In this document: positions 15,829-23,857 of the stretch, piece after piece
How the letters are laid out: every line of letters starts with the position of its first letter
Numbering within the stretch: position 1 is the first letter of the stretch
NCBI GenBank assembly: GCA_004022145.1
Contig: RCNU01000013.1
Source of the DNA: Paecilomyces variotii
Taxonomy: Eukaryota
DNA length: 64,000 bases
Direction: 5' to 3' (one strand)
Translations under genes and position numbers: made by a program
The notes under the pieces: model-generated
Told to the model about the DNA's origin: nothing
Seen by the model: only the letters and a program-made list of their open reading frames with translations
Databases searched by the model: none

Positions 15829-15984
15829 ATGGCCTCAACATCAGCTGCAAACAGCAGCACCGTCGATCTGACTGCAGCAGTTGCATTATTAACACAGCAA
15901 GTCACGACTCTCACACAGAAACTTGACGCGCACATCGAGAAGTGTCAACAGTCAGATAGATCCACGCCCTCCATTGCATTCTGA
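15829..15984 (+). CDS. 51-aa small ORF (MASTSAANSSTVDLTAAVALLTQQVTTLTQKLDAHIEKCQQSDRSTPSIAF); uORF, separate gene or first exon of the downstream gene
   Basis: Hand translation from ATG 15829 to TGA 15984; amphipathic heptad-like pattern; stop lies 22 nt before ATG 16007. Confidence 0.35.
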   Translation: MASTSAANSSTVDLTAAVALLTQQVTTLTQKLDAHIEKCQQSDRSTPSIAF

Positions 15985-16006
15985 CAGCTCCTACGAGCCA
16001 GAGAAC

Positions 16007-17383
16007 ATGGCCAATAATACATTCGCCCATCTTCCTCCGGAAGTATTGCTGATTATTCTTCGCAATGTACCGGATCTGCCATCGCTCTATAGATTCATAT
16101 GTGCATCAGCACAAGCTAATGCGGTATTTAAAATGGATGCTCCTCACATTTTGGATAAGGTCATCAAGCGCTCAATACCAGACTTTCAGCCTTTAGCTCG
16201 CATGATTTCTCTTTTAGGCTCGCTTGACATCCGGATTGGCTTCAATCCACGTCGATTATCAGAAACAGTCACTAAATACGGCGCTCTGCCTAAAGACCTA
16301 CTCACCAAGGCTGCTCCGTCCTTGTACTTCATAACTGGTACCTCGGGTCCGCGATACGTGTTGCTGACAGCTTATCGCATTGAGCATCTCCGACATATCT
16401 GTTTTACCACTCTTCTGCAAAATATTCATGAACTCATTTTTGTCAGTCCCGTGGACGGAAGAAATTTCAGTGACGTCCATACATTGAAACAGTTCCGGCC
16501 TGGAGTATTCTTCAAGCCCGTCGCCTGGTGGTCCCCATCATGGGTCGAAAGGTTTCGCATTGAGCGAGCACTCTGGCGATTATTTATGTACTGGAATATT
16601 GAAGCAATCCATTCTAAAGCTACTGTGCAAGATCCTGACCTCCGTCAATATAATAAAAGAATACGGCAGCTCAGCGGAAGCATAATTGCAGAAGAACGAG
16701 AAGAAGCCAAGATCATATCACACAGGGTTGAAGAGATGAATTGTATATCAGCAGCGGTTTATGAATTTCTCGGTTGCGAACCAGTGAAATTCTTTACGGC
16801 CATATCCAGCCAGGAACGGAAAGCATTGGTTACCAAAGCCCGGTCCAAGTTCGCACTCAGTTTCAAGGAGACTGCTGGTTGGAAGTTCGAAGACCCAAAG
16901 CCCTCAGAAGACACACCCTCTTATTACTGGGGCCAGGCAGCGAGCTGGACGAAGAAGCCTAACTCCGAGTATAGAGACTCCTATTGGTCGGTATGGGAGA
17001 GGGAGAGTCGTCTCCCTAGCTTTAGCATATTGAATCTTGAAAGACGCGATCTTTGGTTCTGTGATTATCTGGGCCTTTGCCTTTGGGATTACAAACGATT
17101 GTTGTATCTTGGACTAGATTATGGAAAATACTGGGATCCTTCCTTGGGGCGTCCAGCGCAGCCTGACGGCAAGTTCTTTTCTTCAGACAGATTGGATGGC
17201 AGATGGAGAGATATCTTCCTCCATGAGTTAGCCAGATTTCAAGGACATGGACGGCGGATGCTGTCATTGAACTGCAAAAGCCACATCGAACGTTGGGACA
17301 ACGAGTTAAGACGTAGGCCACTGTTGGATGGCTGGCGGCTGGAAGAGTCTTACTCTCATATGTACAATCGTGACATGAAATAA
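16007..17383 (+). CDS. Orphan protein with an N-terminal F-box-like motif
   Basis: Uninterrupted ~458-aa ORF; FAHLPPEVLLIILRNVPDLPSLYRFICAS matches the F-box pattern LPxE(I/V)LxxI...LxxLxxxS. Confidence 0.7.
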   Translation: MANNTFAHLPPEVLLIILRNVPDLPSLYRFICASAQANAVFKMDAPHILDKVIKRSIPDFQPLARMISLLGSLDIRIGFNPRRLSETVTKYGALPKDLLTKAAPSLYFITGTSGPRYVLLTAYRIEHLRHICFTTLLQNIHELIFVSPVDGRNFSDVHTLKQFRPGVFFKPVAWWSPSWVERFRIERALWRLFMYWNIEAIHSKATVQDPDLRQYNKRIRQLSGSIIAEEREEAKIISHRVEEMNCISAAVYEFLGCEPVKFFTAISSQERKALVTKARSKFALSFKETAGWKFEDPKPSEDTPSYYWGQAASWTKKPNSEYRDSYWSVWERESRLPSFSILNLERRDLWFCDYLGLCLWDYKRLLYLGLDYGKYWDPSLGRPAQPDGKFFSSDRLDGRWRDIFLHELARFQGHGRRMLSLNCKSHIERWDNELRRRPLLDGWRLEESYSHMYNRDMK

Positions 17384-17484
17384 GAGGAGGGAGAAATGAT
17401 CTTCATCGAGAAAAGCTCCATTGCTGCTCATTTAAAATGTATAAAGATAAAGATAAAGAAGAAGAAGAAGAAGATAAAGATAAA

Positions 17485-17580
17485 GAAGAAGAAGAAGAAG
17501 AAGAAGAAGAAGAAGAAGAAGAAGAAGAAGAAGAAGAAGAAGAAGAAGAAGAAGAAGAAGAAGAAGAAGAAGAAGAAGAA
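17485..17580 (+). repeat. (GAA)32 perfect trinucleotide tract, preceded by degenerate GATAAA/GAA units from ~17443
   Basis: Directly visible; 32 consecutive E codons in the 17437..17622 ORF. Confidence 0.95.
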
Positions 17581-17764
17581 GCGGGGGAAAAGGAAAGGAA
17601 AGTCGAAAAGAAATCTATGTGACTGTTTGTATAATGCCTTTTCACTTCACGTCGTACGATGATTGCTATCTTGCTTCAACACATATGATCTTGGAGGACA
17701 ACATTAGATTTCTAATTCAGTAGCAGGACTAATTGGGAGTATGTAGGTCTCACATTTGTTGCCC

Positions 17765-19203
17765 CTAGGCTAACATCGTCCACAGTAAGCCGAACTAGAC
17801 TGGCATGTATCTTTTCGCGTGGTTGAGCATGTACATACCTCTGCCACTTGCTTCTAGTCAAAAGGTCAGTATGAGACAAGTGAGACAGAAACCCCATAGA
17901 TAAATACATACCCCCGCTACCACCAGACATCAGAGCCAGCGCCGCAACGACGTCGTCCGCCGCCGCCTCCTCCGCCGCCTCCTCAGTCGCAGCCGCCGCG
18001 CCCTATGAAATCATTTCAAGTTAACCTTGTTGAGTTATACAGAATTCTTACCAAAGAACATACTGCATCCTTCTTTTCTAGTTCCTAAGCAATTATTAGC
18101 AGAAAGGCCATATACAAGTATAATTGTCATGTATGCTGACCTTTAGCTTCTTTTCCGCTTTCTATGTTTATATGGTAGCTTCGTTAGTAATTATCTAACG
18201 CACAGTCGAACGGAAGTGATAAATTCTACCAGGTATTTTTCATGAGCATCCTGCAGACAATTGTCAGTTGGTTTAACCTTTAAGAATACATTTAGGACCT
18301 CTTACATCTCTCTCCTCCATCATATGCTGTAATAATACAATATAATAAGCCTTGTCTAAGCTTATTTATAAAGATAATACTGACCTGGATCAGAGAGTCG
18401 AGGCCCTATCAGAGAAGAGCATATCAGTCTAATAATACTTGCGAAACAAGCTCAGTATGAAGTACCTTCCACTGCTGTTTGGAATCCTTGATTATATATT
18501 AGTCAGTGTTATAACCTAGTTAATGTGTACAAAGGATGCTTACATGGGCCACGTTCTGCCAGTACTACATTCCGAACCTATTAGCTGCCCAATTTAAAGA
18601 GATATCTTTGTGTAGAGCTTCATACTTTCTTCGTTCCCTGGAAGAACGATGTTTTGTTAATTAATTCCATGGCAAATGTAAGACCCTTGCTTACAAACTC
18701 AACCTCCGTCTGTCCCAACGACAATTTGCCAAAATTAGTATACTCTAATTGACATGGTAACAGCTTCAGTGTTTCATCACGTACAGTTCTCTACTAAACT
18801 GTCAGCAACGGAAGTACAAATCACCATATAGGTATTTTGAAGTAAAGAATCATATACCTCGTCATCTGCCCTGAAGGTGTACTTCTCTTTCTTGTGGCCT
18901 TGCTGGTGGCATAGTCTGCACTATATTGCGTGAATACTAATCCATTCGAACCCGAACTCTGGCTGCTTACGGTTCCGATACTATATAAAACAAGTATATT
19001 AGCAGAGTTCTTTTCAGTACGGCGAGGGACACTGACATGACGAGAGCTCCGACTCTGATGACAGCAATAAATTTGGACTATTAGCGTTTTCCATCGACCC
19101 TTCCTTTGTTTCTATCCACCTTGTTTTCTGGCTATTTCAAAGCAAGTAGACTTCATATTAGCAGGGCTCTACTGCTCATAGATCGCTAGACTAGCTTGCC
19201 CAT
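17765..19203 (-). CDS. Microexon gene encoding a ~130-aa predicted coiled-coil protein; 18 coding exons from ATG 19203, with further short exons upstream to ~19600-19900
   Basis: Regular minus-strand donor, branch-site and acceptor triplets every ~70-85 nt. Exons: 19206-19200, 19131-19120, 19054-19037, 18980-18971, 18915-18858, 18790-18785, 18709-18695, 18637-18626, seven 21-nt exons between 18564 and 18064, 18002-17912, 17853-17839, 17769-17765. They splice into one open frame. Confidence 0.75.
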
Positions 19204-20226
19204 TGTCTTGAAGTTCAAGCGAGACATATGTCAGCATCGGACTGCATTTTGTAAGTTACAGGACGATTTACCTACTCTCAGCTTTCTTTCTATTAATTAG
19301 TCAATTGGTCTTCAGTGCGCTTCCAGAACAGGTAGAATAAGCTTCCACTCTCAGATAGTCTGTTCTTCAATAAGTCCTATTATTAGCCAAGCTTGTCTCT
19401 CGAACCACGAAGATTGCAATGAAGATATTCTCACATAAGTTAGGACTATGAGATATTGAATTATCAGTCAGCGATACTAGCTCGTTGATAGCAACAAAGG
19501 TCACTGCTTACTTACAGAATTCAGTTAAGAACTTGAAATTAGGAAGTTCAATCAGGTTGGCCAGTTTCGATTGAGAATGATCCTCATAACTTGTCGGAGC
19601 CTGCCTACAGGCAGACTTCCTGTCGGGTTTCTCCCACGCCTTCTAGCTCTATCCACAGAGACATATAGGCCGAGCTAGTTGCTAGAGAATTCAAGCTCAG
19701 CGAGCTTCGCTCCAGATAGGTCACATGGTTATCGAATCTGCTACCCAGTCAAAGGTCAAAAAGAACTAGTGTAATATAAAAAAAGAAGCTGCTCTGGTTG
19801 TGACAGACCAGACATTTCAATAAAAATAAGGACACAAAAATCTAGTTCATCACGTACGTGTCTGCTGTTGCGGAGAGGGAAGGGGAAAGGTGAAGGAGAA
19901 GGAGAAACGTCGCGGCACCCACTACGGACTTATAAGTCCAACAGAACTACGTGCCTTCCCAGGCACAGCGTGACTCTTACACTCAATTCGACGCACAACG
20001 ATTGAAAGTGAATCATTTACAGAGTGATTACTTGGACTAGGGACATGCTTGAGAAACCTTTCATACTATACAATATTCATTGGGCCCTCTAGTCATCAAT
20101 TTGATGGGCAGCCAGATCATCACTTTACTAAATATGTCGTTTTTGATAATAAGAACCCAATATTAAGCTAGAAACTATGCTCGAGGCGCGAAAACATACG
20201 ATAGCTCCTCCGGTTGAGATGTTAAC

Positions 20227-20732
20227 TTGGTCATGCTTCTCCTTCAAGATGTATTTTCGTCCACTAGCGTCCAAAGAGTCCTGATTACTTATTCATGTAC
20301 GGAGCTGCTTACTTACTGGATCGCCCCCTGCGTCTTCGAATCAAACAATGTTGTCGAGGAAGTATTATGGGTTCGAGCTAGTGATCACGATATTACACCG
20401 GTAGACTGGGTTTAACTACAAATTGAAGCAGCCCAGGATTACGGCCATGGAGACTGGATCAGTGAACTATCAGGTTGTCCATCACGTCTTTCCACAGGTG
20501 AGCTTATTCAATCCTTAACAGTTTCGATTCCTGCCTTTCGAAATATTATTTGTTATTAAAGGAACATTCTAATCCTTCAAACAGATTAATCAGCCATATT
20601 ATCCAGAGATTGCCAATATTGTCAAATGGACGTGTATCGAGTTTGGAATCACATATAGAGCTCGATCTAGCTGCGCTGGGTGACCATCTTCGCTTGCTGA
20701 AAAGAATGGGAATGGTAAAAGCTGATTCCTAG
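20227..20732 (+). pseudogene. Decayed C-terminal part of a front-end (delta-5/delta-6-like) fatty-acid desaturase; intron 20498-20584
   Basis: Translated pieces FESNNVVEEV...DWV*LQIEAAQDYGHG / GSVNYQVVHHVFPQ|INQPYYPEIANIVKWTCIEFGITY / ALGDHLRLLKRMG; QxxHH third His-box; internal stop and two frameshifts. Confidence 0.75.
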
Positions 20733-21203: not shown

Positions 21204-22988
21204 CTAAATACATATAGTACTCCAAGTCATTGCACCGTAACCTTGTTCCGTCGAGCTCCAGCTGTACGCCCTAGGATCCCGATGCAGTGTAGTCATATAT
21301 TCAAAATGTCCACGAATATTTTCGGCGTCAGTGTATACTTTGGTTAATCTTCCACCATTCTCAAGTTCATGTTCTGCCTCTGCGCTAGTTTGGAAAACGG
21401 TTCCTTGCTCCTGGCAAGCCTTTTCAGTCTTTTCAAACGACCCATAGGGTGTAAACATCGAACTACCCTCGCTATCGACGAATCTCTCATTAATTAGGAT
21501 CATGTCCATCGGTCCACCTTCGTCTTCATGACGACGCACGTAAACCTCGAGAGAAGTGTCCCAATCGTGATACAAAAAATTCGCGAAGTAAGACCTGTAA
21601 AGGGTGAGTTTTGTTAATCGGTTGGGCAGATGTGCCCGGAGATAACCGGTGGTCAATTTTTGATGCTTGTACTGGTCGCCAAGGAGTAGATCTGGGACAA
21701 CAGCAAGGTGTTTCAGAGAAAGAAATGACCGTAATGGACAGCAGTAAACTGGTTTTTTCTCCACCTTTTCTTTTTCTTCTTGGTAACTATCGTAACTATC
21801 GTCATCGTCATCGTCGTAGTCGTCTTGTTCTTCTTCCTCTTCACCAAACGCACCTATCGGCGGCGGACACCAAAACTCGTTCACGTGCTCATGCAAATCG
21901 AGATGAAACAGCTGGTCTTTGAATCGATCTAAACTCGGCCACAGTTTCCGTTTCAAAGTTGTCACAGGGTCTGTCTCCAACGTCTTCATCACCGAGAGAC
22001 GTAACGTGTCGAGAGTCTCCGGGAGATCAAGAAGTGTCCAAAGATCATCATTTTCTTCGGATAATGGATGATCGAGCACAATCGTCAAATCTACCACCGG
22101 CGATATCTGTCGGGCATTTTTGTCAAATATCGCTGCAGCGCCCCTCGGGTTCAGATCGTAGAGACCCAATACCTTCAGTTGCGGCAGGTAGAACACAGGC
22201 CATAGATAGTCCAAATTAAGATCGTAGTATCTCTCCCACGGGTGACCAGTGTCATTGCAGTGATAGCCCTCACAGAAGAATTCCGCTCGTGATAATTTCT
22301 GAAAAGCTCGATACCTGGGACTGCGATTCGTTGTGCCCTCTTCTTTTTCAATGGCTTTTTTGAAGATCTCACTGAGATAATAGCACCAAGCCGGGACGTG
22401 AGCCTGAATGCTTTCCACATTCGGCAGCCGTGTGAGCAAGATAGCCATTAAAGGGGTCCGATCGGCATTCTTTTCAATTGCCCAGAACATGTTGAATTCA
22501 TCTTTCTCATTAAAACCAGCGTCACCAATGGCGGCCTTGAGCACGACTCTCTCGGCCTGCGAGAGAGTTAGCTGATTCTCCGGCTTCTCCACGTCTGACG
22601 GAATAACCCAGCAGCCCCATGCGCGAATTTCTAGATGCTTCACGCATGAAGCAAGTTCCGGGCGACTGAGTATCGTTCGGAGGTAGAGCCAGAGATTTCT
22701 TAAGGATTGCCTTTCTCCGCGATATGTGAACGTTTCGTACAACGTTGGTTGTACCAGATCCCTCCACTGCTTTCCAACCCGGCAAAGGTCCGAAAGTTGT
22801 CTTTCTTCAGAACGAGCGTCCGGCAGACGCCGGACTGCAGCATCTAGGTCCTTGCTGGGTATTTCAAGTGGCAATAATGCCGGGTCGAACCTCTTCTCGG
22901 GAGAACCATGATTGTCGCGATTTTGGCGTATGACCTCGTGCAGGATCATCCCGAATAGTTCAGGTGGTAAAGATGCTGGATCGGGCAT
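21204..22988 (-). CDS. F-box-like protein with degenerate LRR-like C-terminal repeats and an acidic insert
   Basis: 594-aa ORF; LPPELFGMILHEV...LSDLCRVGKQWRDLVQPTLY, ILSRPELASCVKHLEI, LPNVESI, LPQLKVLGL and LPNRLTKLTL are typical of expanded fungal F-box-like families. Confidence 0.75.
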   Translation of the reverse strand: MPDPASLPPELFGMILHEVIRQNRDNHGSPEKRFDPALLPLEIPSKDLDAAVRRLPDARSEERQLSDLCRVGKQWRDLVQPTLYETFTYRGERQSLRNLWLYLRTILSRPELASCVKHLEIRAWGCWVIPSDVEKPENQLTLSQAERVVLKAAIGDAGFNEKDEFNMFWAIEKNADRTPLMAILLTRLPNVESIQAHVPAWCYYLSEIFKKAIEKEEGTTNRSPRYRAFQKLSRAEFFCEGYHCNDTGHPWERYYDLNLDYLWPVFYLPQLKVLGLYDLNPRGAAAIFDKNARQISPVVDLTIVLDHPLSEENDDLWTLLDLPETLDTLRLSVMKTLETDPVTTLKRKLWPSLDRFKDQLFHLDLHEHVNEFWCPPPIGAFGEEEEEQDDYDDDDDDSYDSYQEEKEKVEKKPVYCCPLRSFLSLKHLAVVPDLLLGDQYKHQKLTTGYLRAHLPNRLTKLTLYRSYFANFLYHDWDTSLEVYVRRHEDEGGPMDMILINERFVDSEGSSMFTPYGSFEKTEKACQEQGTVFQTSAEAEHELENGGRLTKVYTDAENIRGHFEYMTTLHRDPRAYSWSSTEQGYGAMTWSTICI

Positions 22989-23857
22989 TTTGAAATGTCT
23001 CGACCGTGTTCCTGTTCTACTTCAATAGACTGTTACTTAACTGCGGACAGAGGAATAAGTGGGCGGCTGCGATTGAGTTGTCCGCACATGGAGAATTGAT
23101 TCGAGCCAACAAAAATAGACTGGTATAAACATACAAAAGGAGAAAGATGAAAAAGAATTTGAATACCTAGTGGTAGGAATTCGCTGGTGGTCATCCAGCC
23201 AGGCACTACTTACTTCCCTGAAGGTTTCACGTTGAAGAAGACGGTTTGGCGCTCGTGACAGTGATGTGACACGGGCTAATTTAATGTCAGCAGCTAAAAT
23301 CAACGGTCCTAAAAAGGTACCAACGCACTCGTATTCGGAGGAATAGCCATTATAGCTCAATTCTTAGTTGGCACTTAGTAACCAATCTATTAAGTATTAT
23401 TTCACAGGCGAGTCGGCTATCCGTCCGAACTTTCTAGCGTTTATTGCCTTTTCCCTAACCCAAAGTTCGCTGTATATCATACAAATTGCTTGGCGAAAAA
23501 GGAGTATCATCACATTCAGTCGCTGGAGAGACTAATAGATACCTCAGTGATAGTTGTCGCCCTCAAGTCCACGCTGTTTGAGCTCCCCAGTTAGTGGTCT
23601 ATATAGTCGGGACACAGAGCTTCCCATATTACCCATGGCCAAGTCCGTACTCCGTAACTAAATAGTAGTAGAAACGCATATGCCGTAATTATAATATACC
23701 GAATCCCGATATTAGTCGCTAGCCTAGGATTTATATGCTCGCAATAAGAAACATGGTATATTCACTGAAACGCTCGTCCGGAGCAGGAAGACAGGTCATA
23801 AGCTTCTGTTAGACATGCGCTGCAGAGTCTACGCCGCTGAGATAGGGCGAGTCGGCC

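Follow-up and report, generated by a model that had tools for sequence, protein, structure and literature searches.

Do seven consecutive stretches of exactly 21 nucleotides (nt), lying on the minus strand of a 64,000-nt piece of the Paecilomyces variotii genome (contig RCNU01000013.1 of GenBank assembly GCA_004022145.1; hereafter the window), act as exons of a real gene, and does each of them encode one heptad of a coiled coil? The seven stretches occupy positions 18064–18564, and RNA contigs show that they are spliced as part of a longer micro-exon gene, one isoform of which lacks precisely one of the seven exons. The explanation that we favor, and that we hold to be on balance probable, is that P. 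variotii has here a genuine, spliced micro-exon gene, restricted to its lineage, whose long frame is translated into a self-pairing helix, with one heptad contributed by each 21-nt exon.

An earlier note, made from the sequence alone, had listed the seven minus-strand segments. Each of them is indeed 21 nt long, is preceded by AG and followed by GT, is free of stop codons and encodes the peptide that had been given for it. In the numbering of the complete gene these heptad exons 1–7 are exon 10 (18544–18564; YWQNVAH), exon 11 (18466–18486; DSKQQWK), exon 12 (18385–18405; GLDSLIQ), exon 13 (18306–18326; HMMEERD), exon 14 (18230–18250; DAHEKYL), exon 15 (18141–18161; KAEKKLK) and exon 16 (18064–18084; ELEKKDA). 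The intervening introns are, in order, 57, 60, 58, 55, 68 and 56 nt long, and the last of the seven exons is followed by an intron of 61 nt. As a test of chance, we looked across the 64-kilobase (kb) window for chains of sites made of AG, 21 nt without a stop, and GT, spaced 45–100 nt apart. The longest such chain on the plus strand has 3 links; that on the minus strand begins at 18564 and has 8, of which the eighth is a chance site beyond the last heptad exon. When 300 sequences of 64 kb were simulated from a first-order Markov model of the local composition, their longest chain had 2 (27 sequences), 3 (207), 4 (59) or 5 (7) links, and never 6 or more, which places the observed pattern well outside chance.

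To look for RNA evidence, we compared 4 (X1, X2, X16 and X19) of the 24 public runs listed for the stretch, in the form of contigs and not of reads. In contigs of run X2, a pure-culture run of 'organism A' that had been labelled RNA by guess, joints whose ends are CT..AC, equivalent to GT..AG when read on the minus strand, remove exactly 18487–18543, 18406–18465, 18327–18384, 18251–18305, 18162–18229, 18085–18140 and 18003–18063, each of these seven joints being carried by one contig at a depth of 4.7–11.6. The joints thus fall on exactly the predicted bases, such that the exon lengths, the phase 0 and the splicing claimed in the earlier note stand on both the sequence borders and the contig joints. 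Indeed, X2 contigs bridge all 18 introns of the gene, and the micro-exon letters found between the flanks fit unique AG..GT sites. A further X2 joint, from 18250 to 18385 (listed as 18249 to 18384, the cut being shifted by +1), skips 134 nt, that is 55 + 21 + 58, corresponding to intron 13, exon 13 and intron 12; its depth is 9.4, and that of the inclusive joints beside it is 6.7. Because this isoform lacks exactly one 21-nt exon (18306–18326), skipping that preserves both frame and heptad register happens at the RNA level. The suggestion that exons could be skipped in this manner is therefore borne out for one of the seven heptad exons, in one run and in contigs that give no proportions.

Run X2 also holds intron-retaining or unspliced pieces (records 9, 10 and 12) and alternative donors at 19272 and 19276, and its pieces show 0 differing letters relative to the window. 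This mix of spliced joints, alternative donors, a skipped form and unspliced pieces argues that X2 is RNA and not DNA. In run X1, a food-fermentation metatranscriptome, a single unspliced contig covers 17992–18710 with 15 differing letters in 719 (~2%). X1 has an even depth of 26–37 across the introns as well as across the sequence upstream of the gene, which suggests DNA carry-over, and X1 was therefore used as a haplotype only. (Note that nothing from runs X16 and X19, which carry the same species label, mapped to the stretch; this is no proof of absence, and words of 31 letters are in any case too long to match a 21-nt exon once the RNA is spliced.)

The seven exons proved to be part of a longer run of micro-exons that had not been recognized before, the missing members being exons of 6, 15 and 12 nt just upstream, of 10 and 11 nt further up and of 15 nt downstream. 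The whole gene has 19 exons and 18 introns on the minus strand and is about 1.9 kb in size (its first exon begins ~1.9 kb upstream of its last), with exon lengths, in order, of at least 132, 11, 89, 170, 10, 63, 6, 15, 12, seven times 21, 91, 15 and at least 170 nt. All 18 introns are of the GT-AG type and 50–75 nt long, and a YTRAY branch-point motif is present 5–40 nt from the 3' end in 15 of the 18 (YTNAY in 18 of 18). Thirteen of the 17 internal exons are no longer than 21 nt (6, 10, 11, 12, 15 and 15 nt, and the seven of 21 nt), and each of the six micro-exons other than the heptad exons (11, 10, 6, 15, 12 and 15 nt) is a unique AG..GT site. Exons 6–16 (63, 6, 15, 12 and seven times 21 nt) make up eleven exons in a row whose lengths are all multiples of three (3n) and whose phases are all 0-0.

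Through the spliced gene runs one frame that is open for 134 codons over 16 exons and closes with a TAG (17767–17765) in the terminal exon, the other two frames being closed within the heptad exons. By our own arithmetic, the chance of eleven 3n phase-0 exons is (1/3)^11, or ~6e-6, and (1/3)^5 = 0.004 if the seven 21-mers are taken as one event. Of the five differences that the X1 haplotype shows within exons, three are synonymous changes at third positions of the long frame, as compared with one of five in each other frame and an expected synonymous share of 0.17–0.33.

A search with the 96-codon read-through open reading frame (ORF) of exon 17 returned two proteins, P0001 and P0002. The latter is the 113-residue 'hypothetical protein DTO164E3_7803 [Paecilomyces variotii]', which has two NCBI accessions. 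Window segments joined by their coordinates reproduce P0002 exactly, which makes the window P. variotii or a sequence identical to it at this locus, and this independent GenBank annotation contains the same seven exons, which encode residues 16–64 (49 residues). The earlier note had read these residues as a coiled coil with core positions at exon residues 2 and 6, and prediction agrees on both counts. In particular, AlphaFold2, run on the single sequence of P0002, predicts one helix spanning residues 6–88, with predicted local distance difference test (pLDDT) values, taken by block, of 91–96 over residues 11–60, and positions 2 and 6 provide the best heptad register, with W, S, L, M, A, A and L at d and A, W, I, R, Y, L and D at a. 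Since exon and heptad coincide exactly, residue 6 of every exon is an a position and residue 2 a d position. Apolar residues (A, I, L, M, F, V, W or Y) occupy 11 of the 14 a and d positions, a count that 1 of 5000 shuffles reaches in its own best register, and the hydrophobic moment peaks at a period of 3.5–3.6 (9 and 3 of 2000 shuffles reach it). These findings suggest that the seven exons each give one heptad of a continuous amphipathic helix.

Consistent with a helix that pairs with itself, a homodimer model made from two copies of residues 12–90 scored 0.59, as compared with 0.02 for the best of 3 controls; the runs shared at least 97% of their contacts, and the pLDDT of the partner was at least 85. 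In benchmarks, 21 of 30 microbial proteins whose structures had been solved as pairs of one chain reached this mark, as did 0 of 23 solved as single chains; for eukaryotes the counts were 17 of 29 solved pairs, though just 1 of the 7 without an older solved relative, and 0 of 30 single chains. The modelled contacts are the a and d residues 17, 21, 24, 28, 31, 35, 38, 42, 45, 49, 52, 56 and 59, and the model is support for, though not proof of, binding between two copies. Because the numbers of paired residues sum to ~70–74, the modelled dimer is antiparallel, and it is centered near the junction of exons 12 and 13. If translated as we suppose, the long frame would yield a small helical protein, two copies of which would probably pair as an antiparallel coiled coil.

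A number of observations nevertheless weigh against the translation of the long frame into such a helix, and many of them would equally be expected under a rather unlikely alternative to which we give some weight: that splicing is not followed by productive translation, the transcript being a non-coding RNA with many introns, the product of an orphan gene that is nascent or decaying, or an RNA made chiefly for degradation, with the helical frame as a remnant or by-product. Ahead of exon 13 the long frame, as read in the fully spliced contigs, lacks an AUG, and several upstream AUGs stand in the leader, among them that of a 73-codon ORF that starts at 19094, in another frame, and ends in exon 12, far ahead of the last junction. 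According to the RNA contigs, the start of the GenBank model P0002 (ATG 18670–18668) lies inside intron 8, and the model departs from the contigs at its other end as well, where it reads through intron 18. A comparison of the two haplotypes reveals no stronger conservation of exons than of introns (5 differences in 185 nt of exon versus 7 in 534 nt of intron, the five exonic differences being too few for a test of the ratio of nonsynonymous to synonymous rates, dN/dS), and in exon 17 the variant protein P0001 carries 3 substitutions and a 2-residue in-frame indel within 30 residues. The gene is an orphan (see below), contig depths are low (2–15), and the intron-retaining pieces of X2 lie next to spliced ones. 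Moreover, the splicing evidence comes from one run, whose RNA nature was judged from its joints, and consists of contigs, not reads; and the K/E-rich second half of the predicted helix could instead act as a single stable helix. Set against non-translation are features that would be unexpected in a non-coding RNA, namely the eleven consecutive 3n phase-0 exons, the frame open for 134 codons and the position of its stop in the last exon, together with the rarity of the heptad pattern among shuffles and the finding that 3 of 5 exonic differences are synonymous in the long frame only. Searches of Rfam gave 0 matches at E ≤ 1 in 17000–20500, and introns of 50–75 nt are too short for hosting small nucleolar RNAs (snoRNAs); a snoRNA host gene, considered separately, was rejected because of the absent Rfam match in this interval and the 50–75-nt introns.

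Translation of the long frame, which we infer, could begin at any of three possible starts: the AUGs that exon 13 contains; the one in intron 8, given intron retention or a transcription start inside the gene; or, as a candidate read from the sequence, the AUG at 19094, by way of an unobserved donor 4 nt past the end of exon 4. Upstream of exon 6 the long frame is hydrophobic and without Met. No start codon being established, no signal peptide was assigned.

That the real product is instead the 73-codon ORF from ATG 19094 to exon 12, with the helical frame incidental, seems to us very improbable. In fully spliced contigs this ORF does come first among the long ones that begin with an AUG, but its stop lies seven exon junctions ahead of the transcript end, it leaves unexplained the 21-nt exons 13–16 and a different frame that stays open to the last exon, and just 1 of the 5 haplotype differences is silent in its frame. 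Finally, it is scarcely credible that the joints are artefacts of assembly chimeras, of another organism or of an intron-less DNA copy, as the guessed RNA label of X2, its contigs in place of reads and the unspliced contig that alone represents the X1 metatranscriptome over 17992–18710 might suggest, because eighteen joints all fall on minus-strand GT..AG borders, the run that holds them also has alternative donors, a form with a skipped exon and pieces that retain introns, X2 pieces agree with the window letter for letter (0 differences), the seven exons recur in an independent GenBank model, and the even depth of X1 over introns and upstream sequence fits DNA carry-over.

As to how a run of heptad exons would have arisen, the most likely origin of the favored micro-exon gene is the serial duplication of one unit (~78 nt) composed of a 21-nt exon and a ~57-nt intron, a duplication that would be old enough for sequence likeness to have been lost. 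Exon length would stay at 21 nt because changes that are not a multiple of 21 break the frame or the register. The regularity of the exons is what points to such an origin; the residual likeness among them is weak and could be explained by codon composition, which counts against it. In particular, the mean identity among the 21-nt exons is 7.19 of 21 as compared with 5.71 in shuffles (2 of 1000 reach it), and intron–intron likeness is only slightly above that of shuffles, as common splice signals would give. The best pair of exons has 11 of 21 bases alike, a value matched by 318 of 1000 shuffles, and Tandem Repeats Finder reported no array over 18064–18564; the run is therefore not a recent tandem duplication, as had been said of it at the outset. 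Introner-like elements, like a recent tandem duplication, were considered and rejected: there is no such array and no repeat family over the locus, and the introns are not near-identical. A stricter scan of the window for intron chains found no second such locus, with a donor pattern that was too strict, recovering just 4 of the known introns in a row.

Fungal splicing recognizes short introns singly, such that any heptad exon should be droppable without harm to frame or register. Skipping of exon 13 in addition removes the first in-frame AUGs (18323–18318), and it could thereby act as a switch. A more ambitious proposal, which we regard as unlikely, is that the seven exons form a cassette system in which heptads are independently skippable and give rise to graded coiled coils (up to 2^7 in principle) of unlike length and pairing surface, which would consequently accept different partners or antiparallel registers, with the skipping of exon 13 as an on/off switch. 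In the literature searched, we found splicing-encoded tuning of a structural repeat described for coiled coils in no organism. Nor did we find a description of 21-nt exons matched to heptads in that literature, outside which most subscription journals lie.

The predicted protein has no recognizable relatives in the collections that we searched. Pfam yielded no family above its cut-off for P0002, the best being DUF4110 (E = 0.016; 15.6 bits against a cut-off of 27). A word-indexed homologue search with P0002 returned, at near lengths, only P0002 itself among 121 candidates and, at shorter lengths, nothing. An exhaustive phmmer search against 1.84 billion representative proteins gave 3 matches, the protein itself and two long unrelated proteins with TPR and PilZ domains, respectively, which we rejected as compositional on account of their many short matching stretches; this orphan status is one of the points that count against the favored explanation. 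There was no usable match in the ESM Atlas, none below E = 0.5 among PDB sequences and, in an exact 23-mer scan of metagenome contigs, 0 matches. A CCHC zinc knuckle in exon 6 (C-x2-C-x4-H) was likewise tried and rejected, with zf-CCHC_2 reaching E = 0.34 and a score of 11.2 bits (cut-off 27) and with a Tyr at the fourth ligand position. Gene finders seldom predict micro-exon genes, so that missing homologues may in part be missing annotation. Indeed, such genes can be overlooked or cut short both by gene finders and in protein databases, as illustrated here by a sole protein model that disagrees with the RNA contigs at its start and its end, and the label of orphan may partly reflect poor annotation elsewhere. 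The neighboring genes are housekeeping genes, encoding a class II tRNA synthetase, a PAK kinase with PH and PBD domains, NAD kinase, Es2, CorA, a WD40 protein and Tcp11, and the locus lies between those for the Cla4-type kinase and NAD kinase. The idea that the locus serves recognition or genetic conflict is without support, the protein having no homologue, domain or informative neighbor.

The closest known system in architecture is provided by the micro-exon genes (MEGs) of Schistosoma mansoni, which have exons of 3–81 bp and introns of up to 5 kb (PMC10526429; bioRxiv 10.1101/2023.06.21.545858) and which produce alternatively spliced isoforms (PMC10399815). As far as the available text of these sources goes, the P. 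variotii locus resembles them in that its coding sequence lies mostly in very short symmetric 3n exons (here exons 6–16), in that micro-exon skipping gives in-frame isoforms (here for one of seven heptad exons, in one run) and in that the protein is lineage-specific and without known domains. It differs in its introns, which are 50–75 nt where those of MEGs are long, and in its product, which is predicted to be a regular helix and has no signal peptide or start codon established, whereas the MEG products are secreted, partly disordered parasite proteins. Uniform 21-nt exons that match a structural repeat, as seen here, are not described in the MEG abstracts. Our phmmer search against the 1.84 billion representatives showed no sequence relation to a MEG family.

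Among fungi, the closest precedent for alternatively spliced runs appears, from the citing articles, to be the nank (NACHT-ankyrin) genes of Tuber melanosporum, likewise an ascomycete, in which runs of codon-sized micro-exons are alternatively spliced to diversify the protein (Iotti et al. 2012, as cited in PMC4986451 and PMC10197012). By these accounts their micro-exons are of 3 bp and belong to a large NLR-type receptor family, whereas those described here are of 21 nt and belong to a small orphan protein without NACHT or ankyrin domains. In Trichoderma virens, a filamentous ascomycete as well, including or skipping one micro-exon of Xlr2 alters the protein that is made (PMC11121469), and the skipping of exon 13 could likewise be a switch. 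Unlike the present gene, Xlr2 is presented in the portion of that report available to us as having a single micro-exon in a conserved transcription factor, with no run of equal-length exons and no structural repeat. A long-read annotation of Coprinopsis cinerea, in the parts available to us, indicates that fungal spliceosomes manage internal exons of 15 nt or less and counts the genes with at least one micro-exon, among which P450 genes are enriched; unlike the situation here, runs of thirteen micro-exons or exons of a structural period are not described in those parts. Fungal micro-exons as a whole have been described, in the text available, as barely studied (PMC12230235).

If the long frame is translated, its exon borders would match the period of the alpha-helical coiled coil and would be a counterpart of the 54-bp exon of collagen. 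Fibrillar collagen genes are animal genes with long introns whose 54-bp exons hold 6 Gly-X-Y triplets each and share the same phase, an arrangement explained classically by duplication of a primordial exon unit. The two cases have in common an exon length that is a whole number of structural repeats and a uniform phase; the locus described here differs in having one alpha-helical heptad per exon, in a fungus and with short introns. By this comparison, the locus may be seen as extending what is known of micro-exon genes and repeat-matched exons to one heptad per 21-nt exon, and, given translation, it would offer a simple model of how repeat proteins grow by duplication of an exon-plus-intron unit. 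Because thirteen micro-exons, one of them of 6 nt, are packed with introns of 50–75 nt into ~1.9 kb, the gene is also a natural compact substrate for tests of splicing. The questions that it raises concern how an intron-defining spliceosome removes neighboring introns that are too close for two spliceosomes, in what order they are removed and how skipping arises.

The exons upstream of the heptad exons were placed with the X2 contigs. Exon 1 (19516–19647; at least 132 nt, with its 5' end not defined) starts inside a repeat-like element, the contig breaking at 19647, and is defined by X2 record 16 (19516–19647) and by the joint 19364 to 19516, with a GTAAGT donor. Exon 2 (19435–19445) is the 11-nt micro-exon found as 11 letters between 19364 and 19516, at a unique AG..GT site. 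Exon 3 (19276–19364; 89 nt) has an alternative donor 4 nt further on, at 19272, as seen from the joints 19206 to 19276 and 19206 to 19272. Minor X2 joints connect 19276 or 19272 with 19136; they have two additional letters in the gap, end non-canonically (TC..AC) and have depths of 3.7 and 2, and they could reflect the use of another acceptor, an exon of 2 nt or a quirk of the assembly. Exon 4 (19037–19206; 170 nt; X2 records 14 and 15) contains both the ATG at 19094 that opens the 73-codon ORF and the TAA TAG (19083–19078) that closes the coiled-coil frame upstream. Exon 5 (18971–18980) is a 10-nt micro-exon, present in X2 as 10 letters between 18920 and 19037 at an AG..GT site, and exon 6 (18858–18920; 63 nt; phase 0-0), delimited by X2 joints, is the first of the eleven consecutive 3n exons. 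The 33 letters that X2 shows between 18564 and 18858 are accounted for as 6 + 15 + 12 by exon 7 (18785–18790), exon 8 (18695–18709) and exon 9 (18626–18637; encoding GTKK), the latter two being placed by these letters together with their AG..GT sites.

The 6-nt internal exon 7, which the RNA contig confirms, lies between introns of 67 and 75 nt. Two spliceosomes can hardly sit simultaneously on both introns that flank a 6-nt exon, and the removal of these introns must therefore be ordered. The 75-nt intron 7 (18710–18784) and the 57-nt intron 8 (18638–18694), the second of which holds the ATG that starts P0002, are both 3n and open in frame, and their retention would add 25 and 19 residues, respectively. 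Downstream of the heptad exons, exon 17 (17912–18002; 91 nt; phase 0 to 1; X2 joint 18001 to 18063, record 11) encodes an Ala/Glu-rich low-complexity tail. Exon 18 (17839–17853; phase 1-1) is a 15-nt micro-exon at an AG..GT site, X2 showing 13 letters between 17771 and 17912 at depth 2. The last exon, exon 19 (17600–17769; X2 record 9), has an undefined 3' end and contains the stop TAG (17767–17765) two bases past the last junction. A second haplotype that is ~2% divergent exists; it is seen in the X1 contig, and word shares of 0.57–0.81 were found in some runs with the same species label. For runs X10–X15 the share of the stretch that is present is 0.57–1.00, and for 'organism B' it is 0.73.

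The gene is flanked by two large intron-poor ORFs, at 15893–17383 (plus strand) and 21204–23021 (minus strand), with no Pfam family above cut-off; the latter has a weak match to LRR_15 (21.2 bits, the cut-off being 24). To the eye, the N-terminal motifs of both ORFs resemble an F-box, which we take to be a resemblance only. Together with these ORFs the micro-exon gene forms a low-GC island (0.41–0.46) among conserved housekeeping genes. At the 5' end of the transcript lies an element of ~125 nt (19592–19716) that occurs once in the window, has no Rfam match and shows no notable fold (z = -0.89). Its depth is very high in both libraries, up to 1695 in X1 and 3820 in X2, and many contigs on it continue into unlike sequence on both sides, as would those of a dispersed repeat present in many transcripts; this element may supply the promoter or the first exon of the micro-exon gene. 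A long (AAG)42 microsatellite, which reads as (CTT)n on the strand of the gene, occupies 17456–17581, a short way downstream of exon 19.

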